From: Eledone cirrhosa
Lineage: Eukaryota
Assembly (NCBI GenBank): GCA_964016885.1
Contig: OZ024743.1
Location: forward strand, 282,658,001 to 282,722,000
Direction of reading: 5' to 3'
DNA length: 64,000 nt
The translations under genes were made by a program, and so were the position numbers. Below, in pieces: positions 579 through 41,649 of the stretch. Every line of letters starts with the position of its first letter. The first letter of the stretch is position 1. The notes beneath the pieces were generated by a model. That model made no database searches. It was given only the letters and a program-made list of their open reading frames with translations, and was not told the origin of the DNA.

Positions 579-3500
579 AGATAAGATAATAGACGTAAAT
601 AGAGTGAACGACAGAATAATTAAAATAAGACTTGTCCTCAATAAAACTACGGTGACAGTAATATCTGCGTACGCACCCCAATCCGGACTGCCCGGCGCTA
701 TAAAAGACAGATTCTATGAGACACTGATGCTCGCTACCTCCCAAATAACCGACAGTGACTATATAATTATTGCAGGCGACCTAAATGGTCACGTTGGACA
801 ACATTGTGACGGCTATGACGGAATCCATGGAGGCTATGGGTTCGGTACTAGAAATGAGGAAGGCTCCAGAATCCTGGAATTCTGTGACGCAAATAACTTA
901 ACTATCTGTAACACTAACTTCAAAAAACGAGACAATCACTTGATCACCTATAGATCGGGGGAACACACAAGCCAGGTAGATTATATCCTTACCAGAAGAC
1001 GTGACAGAGTGTCTGTTGTTAACACTAAATCCCTCCCCCATGAAGAATTCACCTCCCAACATAGACTGATAATTAGCGACCTCATAGTCAGGACGAGACA
1101 TACTAGACAGCGGAAGAGGACTATCCTCAGGAGAAAAATATGGAAGCTAAAGGACCCCATAGCCAGAAATAAATTTCAAAGCATATTACTTGATGCTTTC
1201 GACAGTAAGGAAGAGCAATTAGAGTCGTATAATATAGAGGAACAGTGGGAATTCCTGAAAGCAAACCTGCTGACGGCGGCAGACAAAGTCTGTGGCTGGA
1301 GCAGGCCTGTAGGTAGGAGGAGAGTAACATGGTGGTGGAACAGTAAGGTGGAGGAGTTAATTAAGGCCAAAAAGCAGGCTTGGAAAGTATGGCGGGATGG
1401 GGGAAGTAGAGAAGACTATCAAGTGGCCAGGAGGGAAGCTAGGAAACAAGTGTACTTCGCACGAAGGGAAGCAGAGGAAAGAAAGTTCAAGCATGTTCTA
1501 CAACGTGAGGACCAAAAACGTGAGGTGTTCAGGATTGCTAGGCAATGTGTCAAGGAAAACCGTGATATTGTCGGGGAGAAGTGTGTACTTAACGATGATG
1601 GCATACTTGCCATCACCGACGCTGATAAGAAGGTAGCTTGGAAGTGTCACTACGAAAGGCTTCTAAATGAGGAGAATAAATGGGAGAAAGACAGTCTCCC
1701 CCACATCGACCCAATAGAGGGACCAGCAGTGTTAGTCGAGGGTAGTACAATAAGTAAGGCAATCAAAGAGATGAAGACGGGTAAGGCGGCTGGGCGTTCG
1801 GAAATAGTTGCTGAGATGCTGAATGCATCTGGTTCGGTGGGACACACCATGGTCACCCGGATAGTTAACCAAGTCGTACAGAATGGGGTTGTTCCGAAGG
1901 AGTGGTGTAGCAGCATCATCGTTAACTGCTATAAGGGAAAAGGAGAAACTATAGAGGCATTAAATTAATCAACCAGGTCATGAAGGTCACGGAAAAAGTA
2001 ATAGCGCAACTAATCAGAGAGAGAATTGATCTAGATGAAATGCAGTTCGGGTTTGTGTCAGGCAAAAGTACCACAGACGCTCTTTTCATTGTACGACAAC
2101 TACAGGAGAAGTACCTAGCTAAAAGTAAACCCCTATACTTAGCTTTTGTCGACTTGGAGAAAGCTAGGTGTTGACGAATGGCTTGTGAGAGCTATACAAG
2201 CCATGTATAAAGAAACAGTCAGTAAGGTTAGAATTAACAACGAATATAGTGAAGAGTTTAGCGTAAAAGTTGGTGTCCATTAGGGCTCTGTCCTTAGCCC
2301 CCTACTATTTATTATTGCCCTTCAGGCTATAACAGAGGAGTTCAAGACCGGCTGCCCATGGGAACTCCTATACGCAGATCATCTAACGCTCATAGCTGAA
2401 TCAATGACCGAACTAGAGAAGAAATTCCAAACATGGAAGCACGGCCTAGAATCAAAAGGCCTTAAAATTAACCTGGCTAAGACTAAAGTTCTAGTTTGTA
2501 AGAAAGAAAATAAGGCGGCGGTCCCTTCCGGGAAATGGCCATGCTCAGTGTGTAGGAAAGGCGTAGGTAGAAACTCCATTTTATGTCCCCAATGCAAAGT
2601 ATGGGTGCATAAAAGATGTAGTGGGATCACAGGTAAGCTAACTAAGAACATAGATTTTACATGTGGCCGGTGCTCTGGTGCAATAAGTAGCAGCAAGTGC
2701 CCACTAAATACTAGCTCTTTCAATTGCGCAGAGGGTTCTATAGAAATAGTGGACAGCTTCCGTTACCTGGGTGACAAAATCAGCAGTGGGGGAGGGTGCT
2801 CTGAAAGTACAGTAGCTAGAGTCAGAACTGGATGGAAAAAGTTCAGAGAGCTTATACCACTATTAGCCGCTAGAGGGTTCTCCCTAAAAATGAAAGGCAG
2901 GTTATACGATGCCTGCATACGAACAGCAATGCTGCATGGCAGTGAGACCTGGGCATTGTGTGCAGAGGATATACGCAGACTAGAGAGGAACGAAGCTTGC
3001 ATGCTCCGCTGGATGTGCAATAGTAATATACGTGAACGGCTAAGCATAAACGAACTAAGGAAAAAATTAGAAATAAGAGGGATCAGATGTTGTTTACTCG
3101 AGAGAAGGCTACGTTGGTACGGTCACGTGATGCGCATGAAAGACGACAGCTGTATAACAAAGTGCAGGGCAATAAAGATAGACGGTAGCCACGGAGTAGG
3201 CAGACCCAGAAAAACCTGGGACGAGCTGATAAATTCCGACCTCACACGCTTACACCTCTCCAAGACAATGTCACTGGACCGAGACCTTTGGCGGTACTCA
3301 GTAATAGAGAAGACCCGCCTTACCTAAATACAAAGTAAAAACCTACTACAGTCAGTAGGCATCACCCCCCGTCCCACCACCTCCACCCCATCCACACCGC
3401 CCCTTTCAATGTAAAGTTATGTTGGTCCCACAACATCCAGGCCAAAACAAATGAGATCGTGTAGGGGTCACGACAAAAAAAAAAAACACACAGTCCACGC

Positions 3501-3710
3501 TGTAATGTGGCCATGTAGGCAACACGGTAAAAACCTGCCAGCCCCACACTGTAAATGTGGTTGGTGTTAGGAAGGGCATCCAGCTGTAGAAAACCCGCCA
3601 GACAGTCCTATGCGAGCAAGACAACCACTCTTGCCTCAAGTGGGAAAACCCCCGTCCAAACCCATGCAAGCGTGGAACACGGACGCTAAACCTGATGATG
3701 ATGATGATGA
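579..3710 (+). mobile_element. RTE LINE family A, 5'-truncated and inactivated (APE endonuclease + RT pseudogene)
   Basis: ORF pieces 604-1968, 1980-2174 and 2404-3327 are highly similar to the 30.7-kb copy. Lesions: deletions near 1947 and 2164, a TAG stop at 2281, and YADD changed to YADH. 3' UTR ends in (GAT)n at about 3693-3710. Confidence 0.95.
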
Positions 3711-3854
3711 TAATATATATATATATATATTATATATATAAATAATATATATAATATATAATATATATAAATAATATATATAATATATATATAATATATA
3801 TATAATATATATATATAATATATACATATAATATATATATAATATATACATATA

Positions 3855-15258: not shown

Positions 15259-17865
15259 CTGTAGCTGAGGAAAGCAAATTTTTAGAAAATTTGAAACAGA
15301 TCCAGAAAACAAACAGAAATGGAATAATTCTGAACTGAGTTAAATAAATATGAAATCGGGAAAAATAAAGACTTTAAAATAGATTGTTTGTACACATTGT
15401 GTTAATTACAAAGAATGAAATCTCAAAAGTTCTAGATTTTTAACCAGCATCATCACTGAATTAACATCTGCTTTCCAAATAAAAACACCCACTCACTGAT
15501 GCCAACAAGAGAACCTCTATGCCTCCATATAACTTGCTAGGAATAGCAATTCAAATGTTTCTCAAATCACAGCCTGCTGTCTAGAGAAGCAAGGAGTAGA
15601 CACATTGGATTAATATAATTTCTAAAAAATGAAGGAATTGTCACAGTTGGAACACCCTTTAATCATGCCTGCTGGATAAAGGTCAACTTGGGGGCTGAAC
15701 ATCAGTAACTCACTAATGAATAAGTGTGTCTTGAACAGCTTAAAAACATCTAACTTTATTTGGCTATACAAGTAGCACATGACTAATAGGACAAAGGCAG
15801 CAGAATACATTTTCACTAACTTAAATGAAATCCTTAACCCTTTTGATAACAAGCAGCCTGAAGCTGGCCCTAGTTCTATGATACAAAGCTTTTTATTTTG
15901 AAGGGTTTATATCTATCTAAAAACAAAGTTCCATCATAATTGTTTCTACTTTAGGCACAAGGCCACCAATTACCCAGTGCATTACTGGTACTTTATTTTA
16001 TCGACCCCATAAGGATGAAAGGCAAAGTCAACCTCATCATAATTGTATGCAAAACCTTGGTTATTTTCCAGACAATAGATAAATAATCAGAAAATTAGTT
16101 ATATTCCTAAATTCCACCAGATTTTCAAAATTATTTGAAAATCATAGTCAGTGTCAATCCTTAGAAATATAGTAATGAAGGGATTAAAATAAAGACACTG
16201 AAAAAATTACAAAATAAAATGGCACCAAAGCAAGGAACAAACTGATTCCTAAATGTACTGAATTAAGAAGCAAAATGATATTGTTAATTAGTAAGAAACC
16301 TATTGAAATCAAGTTCAAATGTGGTACATATGAACTTTGCTTTCCACAAAATATTGCTGGCATTTACAGATACTTGGAATTTCCTGATGAGGATAGATTT
16401 GTCATTTCTTTTCCTGAATTTATACAGCATTTCAGATAGCTATGGTTCAACATCCTCATCCATATGTGTAAATCTATTATTGATGGTGCTTTATGATGTT
16501 AAATGGAATATAGGGCAAGTCAATATTTATATACTTGGAGCTATTCTTATAAGATGAAAAGTAGAACATAGAAACCTGAAATGAGAGATTGTTTCAGGTT
16601 TCTCTAAAGTATGAATTAGTTAAAACGGAAAGGAGCTGATCATCTCTATTGGTCTTCCTTTTCTGCTACTATCTACTATTAAATTAATTAAGGAGAGAAC
16701 TAAATGACTTTCCAACTCAAAAGTATTATTAATTCATATTAAAAGAAAATGTTTAAAAAGGGATGTTAATTCACAATAATGAGATATCTATTGTTAAAAT
16801 CTTTGAAAACTCCATTTAGAATTTTTATCATGAACAAAATTTGGGACTTAAAAAATGAACATATTTTTTCATAATAAATTTCTGTTAAGTATATAATTCT
16901 TAAAGTTCATATTCAAAATATTTTTTCTGAATTTCATTATTTACAATTCCTTTAAAAAAAAAGGCAAAAAAACAAACCAAAATGACATTATATTAGGTAT
17001 TAAATGATGGTCAATCACATAAATTGATGAAGTTTTAAAAGTTTATAAAACATTGAACATTTGAAAAAATATAGTAAAAACATTTTAAAAACAAACAAAA
17101 AAAAAAGGTTCCAGATTAATTGTGTAATGTATCATGCATCCAAAAACCTGTTAACCAGTAATTTCAAAAATAATTTCAGAACTAGAGCATTGTTCGGTAA
17201 GATTACCGCCGAGTTACTCTATATGCTCACATTGTTATAGAATCTTGGTTTTAACAACTAAACTAAGATACTAACTTAGAGACACACTAACCTAACAATA
17301 TATGTATATATATATAAAGTTGTCTTGGCAGAGGAATTAAGTAGAGTTGAACTCAATTTCTCTGAGTTATCTTAGTTATTTAACCACAAGCCTTTTAAAA
17401 TAATTACACATTGAAATTAAGAAATAACTTAATCAGAGCTGTACAGTTATTTTCAAATACCATTGACGTGTTTTAATTTATTTTTTGAAAAAAGGTTTAC
17501 CCTAATATAAAACTACATGGACTTTTAATAACATTCGTTCTATAATTAAATCTTTAATAATAAACTATTTGTTATTAAAGTATTTATTAAATTTATTGAT
17601 TTGGTGATCAAAGCAATTTAAATGTAGATTTAATTCCATGTTTTATTTTCTCTTGGACGTATTCTTGCATCACTTCCAACGAATGATAAAGTATTCAAAT
17701 TTACAGACATGTTCAACTCATTTTAATAAGGAGCAAGTATTAAAACAACAACAAAAAAATATATGTTTTACACCCATTTTCTATTTTCATGGATAGATGG
17801 TTCAGAATGTCTTTATTACATTTGAAAGTGCACAAGTTCACACAAAAACCAAACCTTCAAGTGAT

Positions 17866-30249: not shown

Positions 30250-30599
30250 GGAGGCACACGGCTTAGTGGTTAGAATATTGGCCTTGCAATCGAAAGGTTG
30301 TGAGTTCAATTCTCAGACCTGGTGATGTGTTGTTTCCTTGAGCAAGACACTTTATTTCACATTGCTCCAGTTTACTCAGCTGTAGAAATGAGATGATAGG
30401 GACTGGGGTCCATATCATTCCACTGCAAAGTGGTTGTGGAGGTGCCACGGCAAAAGAAAGCACCCATCACTCAGTGTAAATGAGGTTGGTGTTAGGAAAG
30501 GCATCCAGCTGTAGAAATCAAGCCAGAATCAGTTCCCGTCCCACCCTTGCAAGCAGGGAAAAAGTGGACGTAAAATGAAATGATGATGATGATGATGAT
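30250..30599 (+). mobile_element. tRNA-derived SINE with RTE-type 3' tail; copies at 51724-52052 (-) and 55008-55393 (-)
   Basis: A-box-like ggcttagtggtta and B-box gagttcaattc; central ccttgagcaagacactt. 3' end shared with the RTE 3' UTR (ggttggtgttaggaagggcatccagctgtagaaa...ggacgtaaaa(tga)n). Probable TSD atataatgg. Confidence 0.88.
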
Positions 30600-30710
30600 A
30601 TAATGGCATAACTCAATTTCAAGCAATGCCATCACTTAACAATCCTCTTGGTCATGGCTTTTGCACAGACGCAACGACGATGGATGGATGGATATATATA
30701 TATATATATA

Positions 30711-33700
30711 CACGAGAATGCGAGCACTCTTCTTTGTTTCGCCCCCGGATGGCTAACATAACCCCATCTCCCCCCGCCCCCCACCACCCCCACCCTCCAA
30801 ACGCGATCCAAAACTTCAGAGTTGGTACCATAAATGTAGGCACCCTAAAGGGGCGCGCTAACGAGGTTGTAGAAATGCTTGAACGTAAGGAGGTCGATGT
30901 TTGTTGTATTCAAGAGACCAGGTGGAGGGGTGGGTCTGCTAGATTCATTGAGGGTAAAAAAAAACGATGTTATAAGCTTTTCTGGGTGGGAAACGACGAT
31001 GGGCTGGGTGGAGTAGGAATCATGGTAGCAGAAAAGTGGGCGGATAAGATAATAGACGTAAATAGAGTGAACGACAGAATAATTAAAATACGACTTGTCC
31101 TCAATAGAACTACGGTGACAGTAATATCTGCGTATGCACCCCAATCCGGACTGCCCGGCACTATAAAAGACAGATTCTATGAGACACTGATGCTCACTAC
31201 CTCCCAAATATCTGACAGTGACTATATAATTATTGCAGGCGACCTAAATGGTCACGTTGGGCAACATTGTGACGGCTACGACGAAATCCATGGAGGCTAT
31301 GGGTTTGGTACTAGAAATGAGGAAGGCTCCAGAATCCTGGAATTCTGTGATGCAAATAACCTAACTATCTGTAACACTAACTTCAAAAAACGCGACAATC
31401 ACCTGATCACCTATAGATCCGGGGAACACACAAGCCAGGTAGATTATATCCTTACCAGAAGACGTGACAGAGTGTCTGTTGTAAACACTAAATCCCTCCC
31501 CCATGAAGAATGCACCTCCCAACATAGACTGATAATTAGCGACCTCATAGTCAGGTCGAGACGTACTCGACAGCAGAAGAGGACTATCCTCAGGAGAAAA
31601 ATATGGAAGCTAAAGGACCCCACAGCCAAAAATAAATTTCAAAACATATTACTTGATGCTTTCGACAGTAAGGAAGAACACTTAGAGTCGGACAATATAG
31701 AGGGACAGTGGGAATTTCTGAAAGCAAACCTGCTGTTGGCCACAGACGAAGTCTGTGGCTGGAGCAGGCCTGTAGGCAGGAGGAGAGTAACATGGTGGTG
31801 GAACAGTAAGGTGGAGGAGTCAATTAAGGCCAAAAAGCAGGCTTGGAAAGTATGGCGGGATGGGGGAAGTAGAGTAGACTATCAAGTGGCCAGGAGGGAA
31901 GCTAGGAGAGAAGTGTACTTAGCAAGAAGGGAAGCTGAGGAAAGAAAGTTCAAGCATGTCCTACAACGCGATGACCAAAAACGTGAGGTGTTCAGGATTG
32001 CTAGGCAATGCGTCAAGGAAAACCGTGATATTGTCGGGGAGAAGTGTGTACTTAACGATGATGGCATACTTGCCATCACCGACACTGATAAGAAGGCAGC
32101 TTGGAAGTGTCACTATGAAAGGCTACTAAATGAGGAGAATAAATGGGAGAAAGACAGTCTCCCCCATGTCGACCCAATAGAGGGACCAGCAGTGTTAGTC
32201 GAGGGGAGTATAATAAGTAAGGCAATCAAGGATATGAAGACAGGTAAGGCGGCTGGGCCTTCGGAAATAGTTGCTGAGATGCTGAAGGCATCTGGCACGG
32301 TGGGACACACCATGGTCACCCGCATAGTTAACCAAGTCGTACAGAATGGGGTTGTTCCGAAGGACTGGCATAGCAGCATCATCGTTAACTGTTATAAGGG
32401 TAAAGGAGACGCCCTAGATAGGAGTAACTATAGAGGCATTAAATTAATCGACCAGGTCATGAAGGTCACAGAAAAAGTAATAGCGCAACTAATCAGAGAG
32501 AGAATTGACCTAGATGAAATGCAGTTCGGGTTTGTGTCAGGCAAAAGTACCACAGACGCTCTTTTCATAGTACGACAACTACAGGAGAAGTACCTAGCTA
32601 AAGGTAAACCCCTCTACTTAGCTTTTGTCGACTTGGAGAAAGCCTTCGACAGAGTCCCCCGCTCCATTATCTGGTGGGCTCTTAGAAAACTAGGCGTTGA
32701 CGAATGGCTTGTGAGGGCTATACAAGCCATGTATAAAGAAACAGTCAGCAAGGTTAGAATTAACAACGAATATAGTGAAGAGTTTAGCGTAAAAGTTGGC
32801 GTCCATCAGGGCTCTGTTCTCAGCCCCCTACTATTTATTATTGCCCTTCAGGCTATAACAGAGGAGTTCAAGACAGGCTGCCCATGGGAACTCCTATACG
32901 CAGACGACCTGACACTCATAGCGGAATCAATGGCCGAGCTAGAGAAGAAATTCCAAACATGGAAGCACGGCCTAGAGTCAAAAGGACTTAAAATTAACCT
33001 GGCTAAGACCAAAGTTCTAGTTTGTAGGAAAGAAAACAAGGCGGCGGTCCCTTCTGGGAAATGGTCGTGCTCGGTGTGTAGGAAAGGCGTAGGTAGAAAC
33101 TCCATTTTGTGTCCTAAATGCAAAGTATGGGTGCATAAAAGATGTAGTGGGATCACAGGTAAGCTAACTAAGAACATAGATTTTACATGTGGCCGGTGTT
33201 CTGGTGCAATAAGTAGCAGCAAGTGCCCACACAATACTAGCTCTTTCAATTGCGCAGAGGGTTCTATAGAAATAGTGGACAGCTTCCGTTACCTGGGCGA
33301 TAAAATCAGCAGTGGGGGAGGGTGCTCTGAAAGTACTGTAGCTAGAGTCAGAACTGGTTGGAAAAAGTTCAGAGAGCTTATACCACTATTAGCTGCTAAA
33401 GGGTTCTCCCTAAAAATGAAAGGCAGGTTGTACGATGCCTGCATACGAACAGCAATGTTGCACGGCAGTGAGACCTGGGCATTGTGTGCAGAGGATATAC
33501 GCAGACTAGAGAGGAACGAAGCTTGCATGCTCCGCTGGATGTGTAACAGTAATATACGTGAACGGCAAAGCATAAACGAACTAAGGAAAAAATTAGAGAT
33601 AAGAGGGATCAGATGTTGTTTACTCGAGAGAAGGCTACGTTGGTATGGACACGTGATGCGCATGAAAGTCGATAGCTGTATAACAAAGTGCAGGGCAATA

Positions 33701-34224
33701 AAGATAGACGGTAGCCACGGAATAGGCAGACCTAGAAAAACCTGGGACGAGCTGATAAACTCCGACCTCACACACTTACACCTCTCCAAGACAATGTCAC
33801 TGGACCGAGACCTTTGGCGGTACTCAGTAACAGAGAAGACCCGCCTTGCCAGTAGGCATCTCTAACAAAATACACCCCGTCCCACCACCACCACCCCCAC
33901 CCCATCCACACCACCCCGTCCTATGTAAAGTTATGTTGGTGCCGCGCCATCCGGGCCGAAACAAATGAGATCGTGTAGGTGTCACGACAAAAAAACACAC
34001 AGTCCACGCTGTAATGTGGCCGTGTAGGCAACACGGTAAAAACCTCCCAGACCCACACTGTAAATGTGGTTGGTGTTAGGAAGGGCATCCAACTGTAGAA
34101 AACCTGCCAGACAGTCCTATGCGAGCAAGACAATCACTCTTGCCTCAAGTGGGACTACCCCCGTCCAAACCCATGCAAGCGTGGAACACGGACGTTAAAC
34201 GTTGATGATGATGATGATGATGAT
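30711..34224 (+). mobile_element. RTE LINE family A, near full-length copy with intact ORF
   Basis: Starts right after a (TA)n tract, has a single long APE+RT ORF and a ~340-bp 3' UTR, and ends in a (GAT)n tail. Confidence 0.95.
30749..33865 (+). CDS. RTE retrotransposon APE endonuclease / reverse transcriptase with a PHD-like finger inserted in the RT (~1038 aa from MANITP)
   Basis: APE motifs TINVGTL, IQETRW, AYAPQ, GDLNGH, QVDYIL, SQHR. RT motifs YRGIKL, QFGF, DLEKAFD, GVHQGSVLSP, YADD (32897-32908), FRYLG. No stops or frameshifts. Confidence 0.93.
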   Translation: MANITPSPPAPHHPHPPNAIQNFRVGTINVGTLKGRANEVVEMLERKEVDVCCIQETRWRGGSARFIEGKKKRCYKLFWVGNDDGLGGVGIMVAEKWADKIIDVNRVNDRIIKIRLVLNRTTVTVISAYAPQSGLPGTIKDRFYETLMLTTSQISDSDYIIIAGDLNGHVGQHCDGYDEIHGGYGFGTRNEEGSRILEFCDANNLTICNTNFKKRDNHLITYRSGEHTSQVDYILTRRRDRVSVVNTKSLPHEECTSQHRLIISDLIVRSRRTRQQKRTILRRKIWKLKDPTAKNKFQNILLDAFDSKEEHLESDNIEGQWEFLKANLLLATDEVCGWSRPVGRRRVTWWWNSKVEESIKAKKQAWKVWRDGGSRVDYQVARREARREVYLARREAEERKFKHVLQRDDQKREVFRIARQCVKENRDIVGEKCVLNDDGILAITDTDKKAAWKCHYERLLNEENKWEKDSLPHVDPIEGPAVLVEGSIISKAIKDMKTGKAAGPSEIVAEMLKASGTVGHTMVTRIVNQVVQNGVVPKDWHSSIIVNCYKGKGDALDRSNYRGIKLIDQVMKVTEKVIAQLIRERIDLDEMQFGFVSGKSTTDALFIVRQLQEKYLAKGKPLYLAFVDLEKAFDRVPRSIIWWALRKLGVDEWLVRAIQAMYKETVSKVRINNEYSEEFSVKVGVHQGSVLSPLLFIIALQAITEEFKTGCPWELLYADDLTLIAESMAELEKKFQTWKHGLESKGLKINLAKTKVLVCRKENKAAVPSGKWSCSVCRKGVGRNSILCPKCKVWVHKRCSGITGKLTKNIDFTCGRCSGAISSSKCPHNTSSFNCAEGSIEIVDSFRYLGDKISSGGGCSESTVARVRTGWKKFRELIPLLAAKGFSLKMKGRLYDACIRTAMLHGSETWALCAEDIRRLERNEACMLRWMCNSNIRERQSINELRKKLEIRGIRCCLLERRLRWYGHVMRMKVDSCITKCRAIKIDGSHGIGRPRKTWDELINSDLTHLHLSKTMSLDRDLWRYSVTEKTRLASRHL

Positions 34225-34300
34225 ACACACACAAAAAGGAAGTACAGCATAATCGAACCTCTGGTTGCAGTCAAGCTAACGAATGCAGTCAGGATGTGCA

Positions 34301-38800: not shown

Positions 38801-40204
38801 GTATTGATCCCAGTATTTGACTAATATGTTTCATCCAACCCAAAAGATGAAAAGTAAATTCAGCCTTGCAATATTTAAGCTCAAAACGTAATAAATAATA
38901 AGATAAGGATTTTTCTAACAAGAATATTATCTTAGTTACTTTTAATCATAGAATTACAGCTGTTGTCAATTTTCTTTTCCTCTTTGATAAAAGAAAAAGT
39001 TCAAATAATTACAAAATAAAATCTACTGCCTAGAAATAGTTTAGAGCAAAACTTTCTCTACTCTTATAAAATGTTATATTGTATATAAAGAATATTATAG
39101 AAAGATAGCCCCCAATCCCTAAAGAGTGAAATAAAATAAAAAGAAAATTATGAAGAAAAAAAAAGAAAAAATAGACATATGGAATGAATATGTAATAGTA
39201 AGTATTTTACAGATATATATATATATATATAGGGGTCAATTACTAAAGCCTTCTGGGACATTTGAAGGGCTCAATTAATAAAAGGGTCTATTCAAGAGGA
39301 AATTACTAAATTACTTCCACTTGCAATTTGAGGCAGTTGGCATTTCAAGGATGGATCCAATCAGACTAGTTGTAAAAAGACATACTCATGGGAGAGAAAT
39401 ACTCATGGGACATGTCTTAAAAATAATATACTGAAATAAATAAATACTTCATCTGAAAATATAGATTCAGAAACCATCAAATGAAATTGTATCAATATAG
39501 AATGAGAAACAGATGAATTAATAAATCTCACAGGAAAAAAAAAATGTTCTCGATAAAATTCATTCTTTAAAATGAATTCATTCAAAAACACATGAAAAAG
39601 ATAAAAGGAAGAAAAATATAACTTTTTTCTTTTCTTTTTACATAAAATTAATATGAATGCTGAATGAAATGAAACATTTATTAACTCTTAATTTGTTAAG
39701 ATAAATTTGAATTTATTTTGTGTATGAATCATAAGGGCATAAGCAACATGAATCAAAGACAGAAAGCAAAAATGGAATCTTAACATTTCAATGAATAGCT
39801 TAAAACTTTTACTTGTGGAAAGCTTATTAAATAAAACAATCATATTTAAATGAACATGTTTACATAGTAAAACACACATACACGGTTGACAAACTTGAGA
39901 ATGTAGGTTCAATTTCTAAATAGCTATCTGTATCCCCTCACACACACGCACTCCATCCCTATTTCTTTATAAACATTCTAAATATTTTGGAGCTATACAT
40001 GTTTGGCAAGTGAGTTATCCTGAGCCCAAGAATTGAAACAGAAGCAATTACATCATGGAAGAGCTATTTATAAAATGGACAAAAACTGTTATGTTCACTT
40101 TTCATAGATTTATTTGGTGCTATCAAAGTTTTTGTCAACCCTCTGTGACCCAATCACTGAAACGATTCCTCTGCAGAGATGCGACAGAAAGCTTAACACC
40201 ACTA

Positions 40205-40521
40205 AATAATTGTTTCTACTTTAGGCACAAGGCCAGCAAATTACCCAGTGGATTACTGGTACTTTATTTTATCGACCCCGTAAGGATGAAAGGCAAAGTC
40301 AACCTCGGCGGGATTTGAACTCAGATCGTAAAGGGACGTAACTATGCTGGAAAGCATGGCGTCCGACCCTGCTTTCCAGCATAGTTACGTCCCTTTACGA
40401 TCTGAGTTCAAATCCCGCCGAGGTTGACTTTGCCTTTCATCCTTACGGGGTCGATAAAATAAAGTACCAGTAATCCACTGGGTAATTTGCTGGCCTTGTG
40501 CCTAAAGTAGAAACAATTATT
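40205..40521. mobile_element. Head-to-head dimer of a Deu/Nin-domain SINE forming a perfect palindrome, with an 18-bp TSD
   Basis: Arms 40205-40356 and 40370-40521 (152 bp, no mismatch seen). B-box gagttcaaatcc and Nin-like gcctttcatcctt..ggtcgataaaat. Direct repeat ttaacaccactaaataat at 40193-40210 and 40520-40537. Monomeric relatives lie near 6690-6790, 15940-16035, 22680-22750, 37500-37570, 38650-38720 and 45430-45530. Confidence 0.92.
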
Positions 40522-41649
40522 AACACCACTAAATAATGAGAAGTAAATATAACGGATTTTTTAAACTTTTCAAATAAAAAAAAAACAAAAGGAAAATTAG
40601 CATTCCCCATGAAATGTTGTACGAGAGATTTTTATAAACCATTAGAAAAGATGAAAAGGTCCCTGAATTTCTGAAACAGAGGTTAATTCAATTTGGACAG
40701 ATTGTTTATCCTCTCAAGTTTCTATTTCCTTTTCCTTATCCCCATCCACACACACATTAATAAAAGCCCTAACAATAAATTTACACATGACCATTGGGGT
40801 ACAAATTTCATGTAAGTATGCTAAAATACAAAATATAAAACATTCTTTTTTTTTTAAATCAGCTTTATAGCAATTAGACAAAGCAAGTACAAAACTACAC
40901 ATTTAACCTAAATAAACTATAAAGTAGCATCAACTTATAAAATAACTTTTTTTTTTATATTCAAAAACTATAAATTTAGCTCATTTCAATAAATTATTTC
41001 CTTTTATAACCAAAAGCTAAGCTTTATATGTGCGTGTGCGTGCGAAGTCGCTCATCAGCATTACTGGTAACATGTAACCCAGTTCAACCTGAGCATGGTC
41101 AGGTTGTTGGCGACTAAACCAACAACCACACCAAGCTTGTTTGGTGAGGAGGGTGATTTTGGACACCCTGCTGGATGAAAAACAAAACCTGTCAAAGGGC
41201 AGAACACAGGAGAGTTTTTGTGGAGCAAGAGACTCCTAGTCTTCATTAAGACATCTCTCTAGGAGAAGGTCACTGATATAAAACCTGTGACATCATTTGC
41301 ATCCAATGATGTAGACCAGTTCTTCATTTTGGGCAAATGCATTTGATGTTCTTCACTTAATAAAGCTTCAAGCACAGGCATCACTTGATATTTGACATTT
41401 TTACGATGCATGGTATAGCTGGCCATAGGCAAGTCCCGAGTAGGACAAAAAAGCCACATCCATGATGCTCATGCTTAAGTATCAAGCAATAGCATTACTT
41501 GAAATCAAGTTGCAGCCATTTTATATATATATATATAAATACCTGTTTTTTAAAATCCCTTGGCCAATTACATCTTCAAAATCACCACATTCCCCAACCA
41601 CCAGAAAACATAAATACCAACATATTACAATGTGAATTAGCTTTCCTAA

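Follow-up and report, generated by a model that had tools for sequence, protein, structure and literature searches.

Two copies of one SINE stand head to head at positions 40193–40537 of the window, the 64,000-nucleotide stretch of the Eledone cirrhosa assembly analysed here, and both are enclosed by a single target-site duplication (TSD). The left TSD copy (40193–40210, plus strand) and the right TSD copy (40520–40537, plus strand) are identical 18-bp sequences. Read on the minus strand, the left copy begins with ATTAT, the usual target start of this SINE, and its 3' end, AATAAT, is complementary to the ATT-type tail of the element and would have served as the primer of the first-strand cDNA. 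The primary SINE copy (40211–40369, minus strand) covers family positions from about 29–30 to 187–191 of 191, being 5'-truncated by about 29 nt, and may represent the first-strand TPRT product. Its innermost 13 nt (40357–40369, minus strand) form the spacer between the arms, which was probably the loop of the hairpin. When read on the minus strand, the spacer matches the stretch of family head that precedes the start common to both arms, as seen in full-length copies, which bears out the initial annotation in taking it for extra head sequence of the left copy. At the inner junction (40370), family positions 29 and 43 meet with 1 nt of microhomology, a single base common to both copies, and the head offset between the two copies is 14 nt. 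The second arm (40370–40519, plus strand; family positions 43–191) is an exact inverted copy of the primary copy, putatively made by DNA-templated snap-back synthesis, and meets the right TSD via TT (40520–40521).

Positions 40205–40356 and 40370–40521 are perfect reverse complements over 152 nt, and the SINE palindrome first annotated, with exact 152-nt arms, a 13-nt spacer and one 18-bp direct repeat around the whole, is confirmed as real. Its description as a pair of 152-bp SINE copies is right about the exact identity of the arms but not about their extent, since the 152 nt include TSD sequence, 6 nt on the left and 2 nt on the right; the insert between the TSDs measures 309 bp (146 + 13 + 150). 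Folded as RNA, the hairpin reaches −298 kcal/mol (z = −42 against 100 shuffles).

Although the arms are 100% identical and no contig piece spans the hairpin, a fold-back read or an assembly artefact is an exceedingly unlikely source of it. Logan contigs of runs X7 and X8 connect unique flank with an outward-facing SINE tail on either side (39700–40227; 40497/40499–41000), overlaps that are short, as they reach 17–23 nt into the SINE, less than the 31-nt bridging rule. The two runs represent one sample, possibly the assembly's own, the library not being on record. In the search for an empty allele, pieces of X1 and X10 ended before the TSD was reached, and neither three RAD-seq runs nor contigs of another organism yielded sequence across it. 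Furthermore, a fold-back read would not regain the forward flank at an 18-bp TSD, and the existence of sister loci with diverged arms, described below, also speaks against an artefact.

The SINE family

The SINE is about 191 nt long and non-coding, with an ATT-type tail, and has 52,546 exact head-anchor and 75,081 tail-anchor matches across the whole 3.0-Gb assembly searched. A TSD was detected in 24 of 28 near relatives, with a median of 12.5 nt over all 28, and starts with RTTAT in 18 of 24 ordinary copies. High copy number, a simple-repeat tail and TSDs of variable length together characterize the family as a SINE spread by TPRT. At 40193 the TSD begins with ATTAT in the sense of the left copy and with TTAAC in the sense of the right copy, and the left copy therefore looks like an ordinary TPRT product.

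The body presumably resembles that of octopod SINEs. Motifs like Pol III A and B boxes were seen by eye in full-length copies and suggest a probable tRNA origin; ARAGORN made no tRNA call in four loci, and Rfam held no RNA family for the element, two weak plastid hits being chance hairpins. The Nin-domain (Deu) identity given in the initial annotation, which would entail a Nin central domain of about 120 bp, is not supported by sequence comparison, in which the body, set by eye against the Lottia and Nucella Nin sequences in the accessible part of the PMC4758252 supplement, shows only a 7-nt coincidence. The available portions of other SINE-domain literature (PMC5804259, PMC4824008) were consulted as well.

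Elsewhere in the window, a 5'-truncated copy of the same SINE lies at 15936–16035 (minus strand; 96% identity over 101 nt) and is flanked on either side by a short direct repeat. Near full-length copies also occur in tandem, as four units 197 bp apart with identical variants (L012:1952–2692) and as four matches 192 bp apart (G000:C12:42574445–42575047). The window further contains a LINE (30599–33865, plus strand) with an uninterrupted 1088-codon frame that includes an APE endonuclease, a reverse transcriptase (RT) and, after the RT domain, a PHD finger; a broken copy at 580–3854 has 90.7% identity to it. A GAT-repeat tail is found near 34200–34225, 3' of the LINE. This LINE was considered as the partner of the SINE and rejected, because it ends in that GAT repeat, a tail not common to the SINE.

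Variants shared by the two arms

Both arms carry the same two rare variants. In the left arm (40238–40251, minus strand) these are an extra base in the run 40238–40240 and a G-to-C change, in the SINE sense, at 40251; in the right arm (40475–40488, plus strand) they lie at 40475 and in the run 40486–40488. A 28-mer with both variants has two matches genome-wide, namely the two arms, while a 27-mer with the substitution alone has 114 and the family form of the region 42,630. Since the two rare variants occur together nowhere else in the assembly, both arms come from one template, and the uniqueness of the variant pair, together with the one TSD, upholds the earlier proposal of a single event. 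The one-base insertion is all that distinguishes two other copies, L003 and L004, from the arm; with so many copies such likeness can be chance, and no source gene is claimed.

Head-to-head loci across the assembly

Three pattern searches yielded 58, 28 and 253 head-to-head loci. We examined 50 of the 58, all 28 (26 of them new) and the first 50 of the 253 in contig order, amounting to 126 distinct loci, and after exclusion of L072 and L094, for which arm alignment failed, 124 were analysed. The junction is purely SINE–SINE in 82 of these, hereafter pure loci, while the remaining 42 have a spacer of at least 3 nt, for the most part AT-rich target DNA, and resemble neighbours that inserted independently. 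The genome scan for further head-to-head dimers that had been recommended at the outset thus found many of them, with recurring junctions and with differing flanks and arm lengths.

The number of head-to-head loci was tried as evidence in itself and rejected. Two-tailed head-to-head loci number 253 against 225 in the tail-to-tail control, nearly as frequent an orientation, where uniform chance would give 113; anatomy alone, not the count, is therefore the evidence. With 36 of the 50 examined from this set being pure, the genome is estimated to contain about 180 loci that are both pure and two-tailed, a rate of 0.24% per tail-anchor copy, and loci having a shorter second arm come on top. The hairpin at 40193–40537 is one ordinary member of this class, not an exceptional structure.

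Several individual loci deserve mention. Five tail-to-tail loci that seemed palindromic, and one more, are mostly nested SINE copies. L090 (G000:C3:133587452) and L107 (G000:C27:3232842) are paralogous host repeats with a head-to-head SINE pair at the same AAT-repeat site, and their different junctions and arm lengths indicate a shared insertion hot spot. The flanks of L046 (G000:C4:199498099) and L007 (G000:C7:14768213) are 87–88% alike over 1.3 kb, and at the same site one of them carries a snap-back-type pair, the other just one SINE copy, which is different. L044 (G000:C4:164871922) has near-complete heads, a 5-nt insert like the TSD start, a second arm that ends at position 111, a 17-bp TSD and identical arms, which amounts to a more complex switch.

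Anatomy of the pure loci

In 74 of the 82 pure loci the head offset is 8–21 nt, and in 33 of 36 loci found from tail anchors only, with the junction position free, it is 6–18 nt. The two arms are also unequal in a consistent way: among 42 orientable loci, the head of the primary, tail-bearing arm is the longer one in 38 (p = 2.8e-8). This polarity holds in 29 of the 32 whose second arm is 3'-truncated and in 9 of 11 with run-through and a TSD, two counts that between them include one tie, L042. The exceptions are L082, L100, L103 and L141; 39 of the 82 pure loci, that at 40193–40537 among them, could not be oriented.

Where the second arm is truncated, it may stop anywhere from position 56 to 185. 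A TSD of at least 9 nt starts at the second-arm stop in 19 of 32 truncated cases, as compared with 34 of 992 cross-locus pairings. The event is thereby linked to integration; 13 of the 32 truncated cases and several run-through cases have no clear TSD.

Among 36 two-tailed pure loci there are 21 in which the inverted copy does not end with the tail but continues for 10–142 nt into non-repetitive flank; three of these need gaps in the alignment, which leaves 18 of 36 when none are allowed. Such run-through was seen in 2 of 14 spacer-type loci (Fisher p = 0.01). The run-through is followed by the TSD at L136, L144, L145, L156 and L116, and at L144 the copy spans the whole TSD and about 22 nt more before the TSD comes. 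Because SINE RNA cannot template flank, the second arm at the run-through sister loci had a DNA template. The longest run-throughs (L132, L135, L139 and L156) have left 70–142 nt of host flank as an inverted duplicate next to the SINE pair.

The arms of pure loci still diverge by 4.0% (6.0% across loci), and variants common to both arms make up only 57 of 339 (2.4% across loci; 23 of 308 in the spacer class), which weighs against a fold-back origin. Only 5 of 60 pure loci have identical arms, and the locus at 40193–40537 is thus among the youngest of its class, or homogenised.

The same figures bear on a reading in which two independent insertions at one site were later trimmed and homogenised by arm-to-arm conversion. 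Head-to-head neighbours are indeed common, as the 42 target-derived spacers and the tail-to-tail control attest, but at 40193–40537 there is no second TSD and no target DNA in the spacer, arm-to-arm conversion seems inefficient in view of how few pure loci have identical arms, and the two rare variants are common to both arms. The rarity of this variant pair makes two independent insertions very unlikely indeed.

Origin of the palindrome at 40193–40537

A single SINE insertion is, in our view, the likely source of both arms: the first strand of cDNA would have bent back on itself, and its end would have primed a DNA-templated copy of its own sequence. The event would begin with a staggered 18-nt cut at the ATTAT target, after which the top-strand end, ...AATAAT, would prime reverse transcription on the AUU tail of the RNA, and the cDNA would halt 29 nt before the 5' end. 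The cDNA 3' end would then pair 14 nt back via a weak hairpin and be lengthened, with the cDNA as template, as far as the tail and over a further 6 nt of target DNA; candidate enzymes for this synthesis are the reverse transcriptase of the LINE and a host polymerase such as Pol theta. Finally, the new end would join the other target end via 2-nt microhomology, and the gaps would be filled.

The structure accords with such a course in that the antisense segment is nested in the first-strand cDNA, a short loop away from its 3' end, and in that the antisense end is joined to the other target end, the TSD starting where the arm ends. Of the two arms, the one with the longer head has the usual ATTAT target and the other has TTAAC. 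The second arm stops within ATTATT, which may originate from the RNA tail or from the target, so that this locus alone cannot separate snap-back from tail priming. The mechanism is therefore drawn from the class, which favours a snap-back case that stopped at the tail.

Tail priming at both ends is the alternative that the initial annotation had set beside fold-back. In such double-ended TPRT, both target ends would be primed at the SINE RNA tail, with one RNA used twice or with two RNAs from one source, and the two cDNAs would be joined near their 3' ends. We regard this as unlikely, although the tail adjoins both TSD ends, the right end has 3 nt (TTA) matching the ATT tail, and the source RNA could itself have carried the shared variants. 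Internal duplication in L1 twin priming is, moreover, common, with 283 of 1,703 inverted insertions in the accessible text of 10.1101/2024.08.27.596794. These L1 duplications are short, however, with a median of 22 bp in that text (10.1101/2024.08.27.596794) and 12 bp in the available part of PMC12016303, against 146 bp here, and the right target end is not the usual ATTAT site. Double-ended TPRT cannot yield inverted copies of flanking DNA, and it predicts neither the bias towards a longer-head primary arm nor the 8–21-nt offset that the sister loci display. Among twelve two-tailed loci in which both tails adjoin a TSD, the longer-head arm has the canonical target in 8, another 3 are uninformative, and L091 shows the opposite. 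This last locus (G000:C3:140747240), two-tailed with a 16-bp TSD and the canonical target on the shorter-head arm, fits double-ended TPRT and is the best candidate for true double-ended priming. As for the pair of mechanisms originally put forward, fold-back is strongly favoured by the sister loci, and double-ended TPRT is not needed, though conceivable at this one locus.

A later template switch or break repair in an ordinary SINE copy, by which its head was replaced by an inverted copy, is quite improbable. Fold-back repair of DNA ends does give inverted duplications with short hairpins, according to the accessible text of 10.1101/2024.12.14.628481, and a later switch would copy post-insertion variants, which would account for two rare shared variants in an otherwise pristine locus. 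Against this, the point of return coincides precisely with the TSD and no remnant of the head is left, as is also the case in the 19 truncated cases noted above.

Junction hot spots and the likeness to MITEs

Microhomology of at least 1 nt is present at 49 of 78 junctions, as compared with a background of 26%, and untemplated bases at 17 of the 78. The hairpin energy of junctions is better than background (median +2.8 vs +4.3 kcal/mol; 53 distinct junctions, p = 6e-8), and some junctions exploit a natural 5–7-bp hairpin of the SINE and retain its mismatch. The 29/43 junction is one of the two commonest, at seven loci each. At 40193–40537 its pairing is weak, with the 1-nt microhomology, +2.8 kcal/mol and the 16th percentile among same-offset pairs, so that sequence pairing alone does not explain this hot spot. 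The second arms of the seven 29/43 loci end at positions 92, 115, 116, 181, 188, 191 and 191; because these lengths and the flanks differ, the seven are independent events. An amplified composite was considered and rejected in view of the variable arm ends and flanks and of the variant pair, which is unique.

MITEs are short, non-coding elements with long terminal inverted repeats, flanked by a direct repeat. The hairpin is like them in being short and non-coding, in its long inverted repeats and in its direct-repeat flanks, so that the term MITE-like, applied to it earlier, suits its shape. It does not suit its biology: there is no amplification of the unit, the TSD is of SINE type, with 18 bp and the ATTAT start of the SINE instead of the short fixed length of a transposase-type duplication, and the inverted repeats are a by-product of insertion. 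The structure is a recurring insertion accident, not a new mobile element.

Implications

More broadly, the genome may record hundreds of independent snap-back events of one SINE family, with sequence-determined hot spots and with strand-displacing synthesis through the tail and TSD into the flank, as a routine pathway for resolving LINE/SINE insertions. We lean slightly towards this generalization. If it is true, the snap-back rate is well above the Alu inversion rate, and there is a steady supply of perfect 100–300-bp hairpins able to yield dsRNA against the SINE family.

The 5' junction and second-strand completion of non-LTR elements are still debated, and 5' inversions are usually credited to twin priming. 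The present collection offers dozens of natural events in which self-primed, DNA-templated copying can be separated from RNA priming by loop-sized offsets, fixed polarity and flank run-through. A full census could map the fold-back hot spots on the 191-nt template, and the distributions of synthesis length and microhomology can point to the polymerase. SINE activity is, in addition, a route to perfect hairpins and to small inverted duplications of host DNA. In the literature searched, a scope outside which most subscription papers lay, no account of snap-back palindromes of a natural SINE family was found. Snap-back as a mechanism is known; what appears to be a new variant is that it happens often, and naturally, in a SINE and with run-through into the flank.

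Comparison with known systems

Twin priming of L1 was reportedly described by Ostertag and Kazazian in 2001. The present loci are like L1 twin priming in having head-to-head inverted segments within one TSD and microhomology at the junction. The initial annotation had already noted a mismatch with ordinary twin priming, and correctly so, as the overlap at 40193–40537 is a full 146 nt and there is no upstream inverted segment. Twin priming with internal duplication has been described for L1, and in the accessible parts of the two sources the inverted segment lies upstream and the overlap has a median of 12–22 bp (10.1101/2024.08.27.596794, PMC12016303). Here, unlike in L1, the whole segment is nested within the tail-bearing arm, and it can take in flank DNA. 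Inversions of Alu in the germline stand at 0.02% in Table 1 of PMC12016303, a source available to us in part, against the estimated 0.24% here, two figures that rest on different definitions.

The closest parallel in kind is the snap-back 5' junction formed by R2 protein (PRINT), in which, according to the accessible parts of three sources, the cDNA 3' end primes on the cDNA and then joins the upstream target (PMC11371274, PMC11204384, PMC11331408). The self-primed cDNA and the antisense segment joined to the other target end are common to both systems. As those parts describe it, the R2-protein system is engineered and acts on rDNA in cultured human cells, whereas here a natural SINE is involved, at dispersed sites of an assembled animal genome. 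Unlike the R2-protein junctions, the present loci have TSDs of 9–20 bp, and the copy may extend over the entire element and on into the flank.

For L1, insertions have also been described in which foldback has produced an inverted duplication of the target DNA (PMC10191854; 10.1101/2024.12.14.628481). These resemble the present loci in self-priming from a short hairpin at the TPRT break and in keeping a TSD-like duplication. In the available portions of both sources, the extra synthesis amounts to 52–220 bp, and most foldbacks involve the reciprocal (5') target end, with genomic DNA as the duplicated sequence (PMC10191854; 10.1101/2024.12.14.628481). In the SINE family studied here, in contrast, it is the cDNA end that folds back and the element itself that is duplicated.
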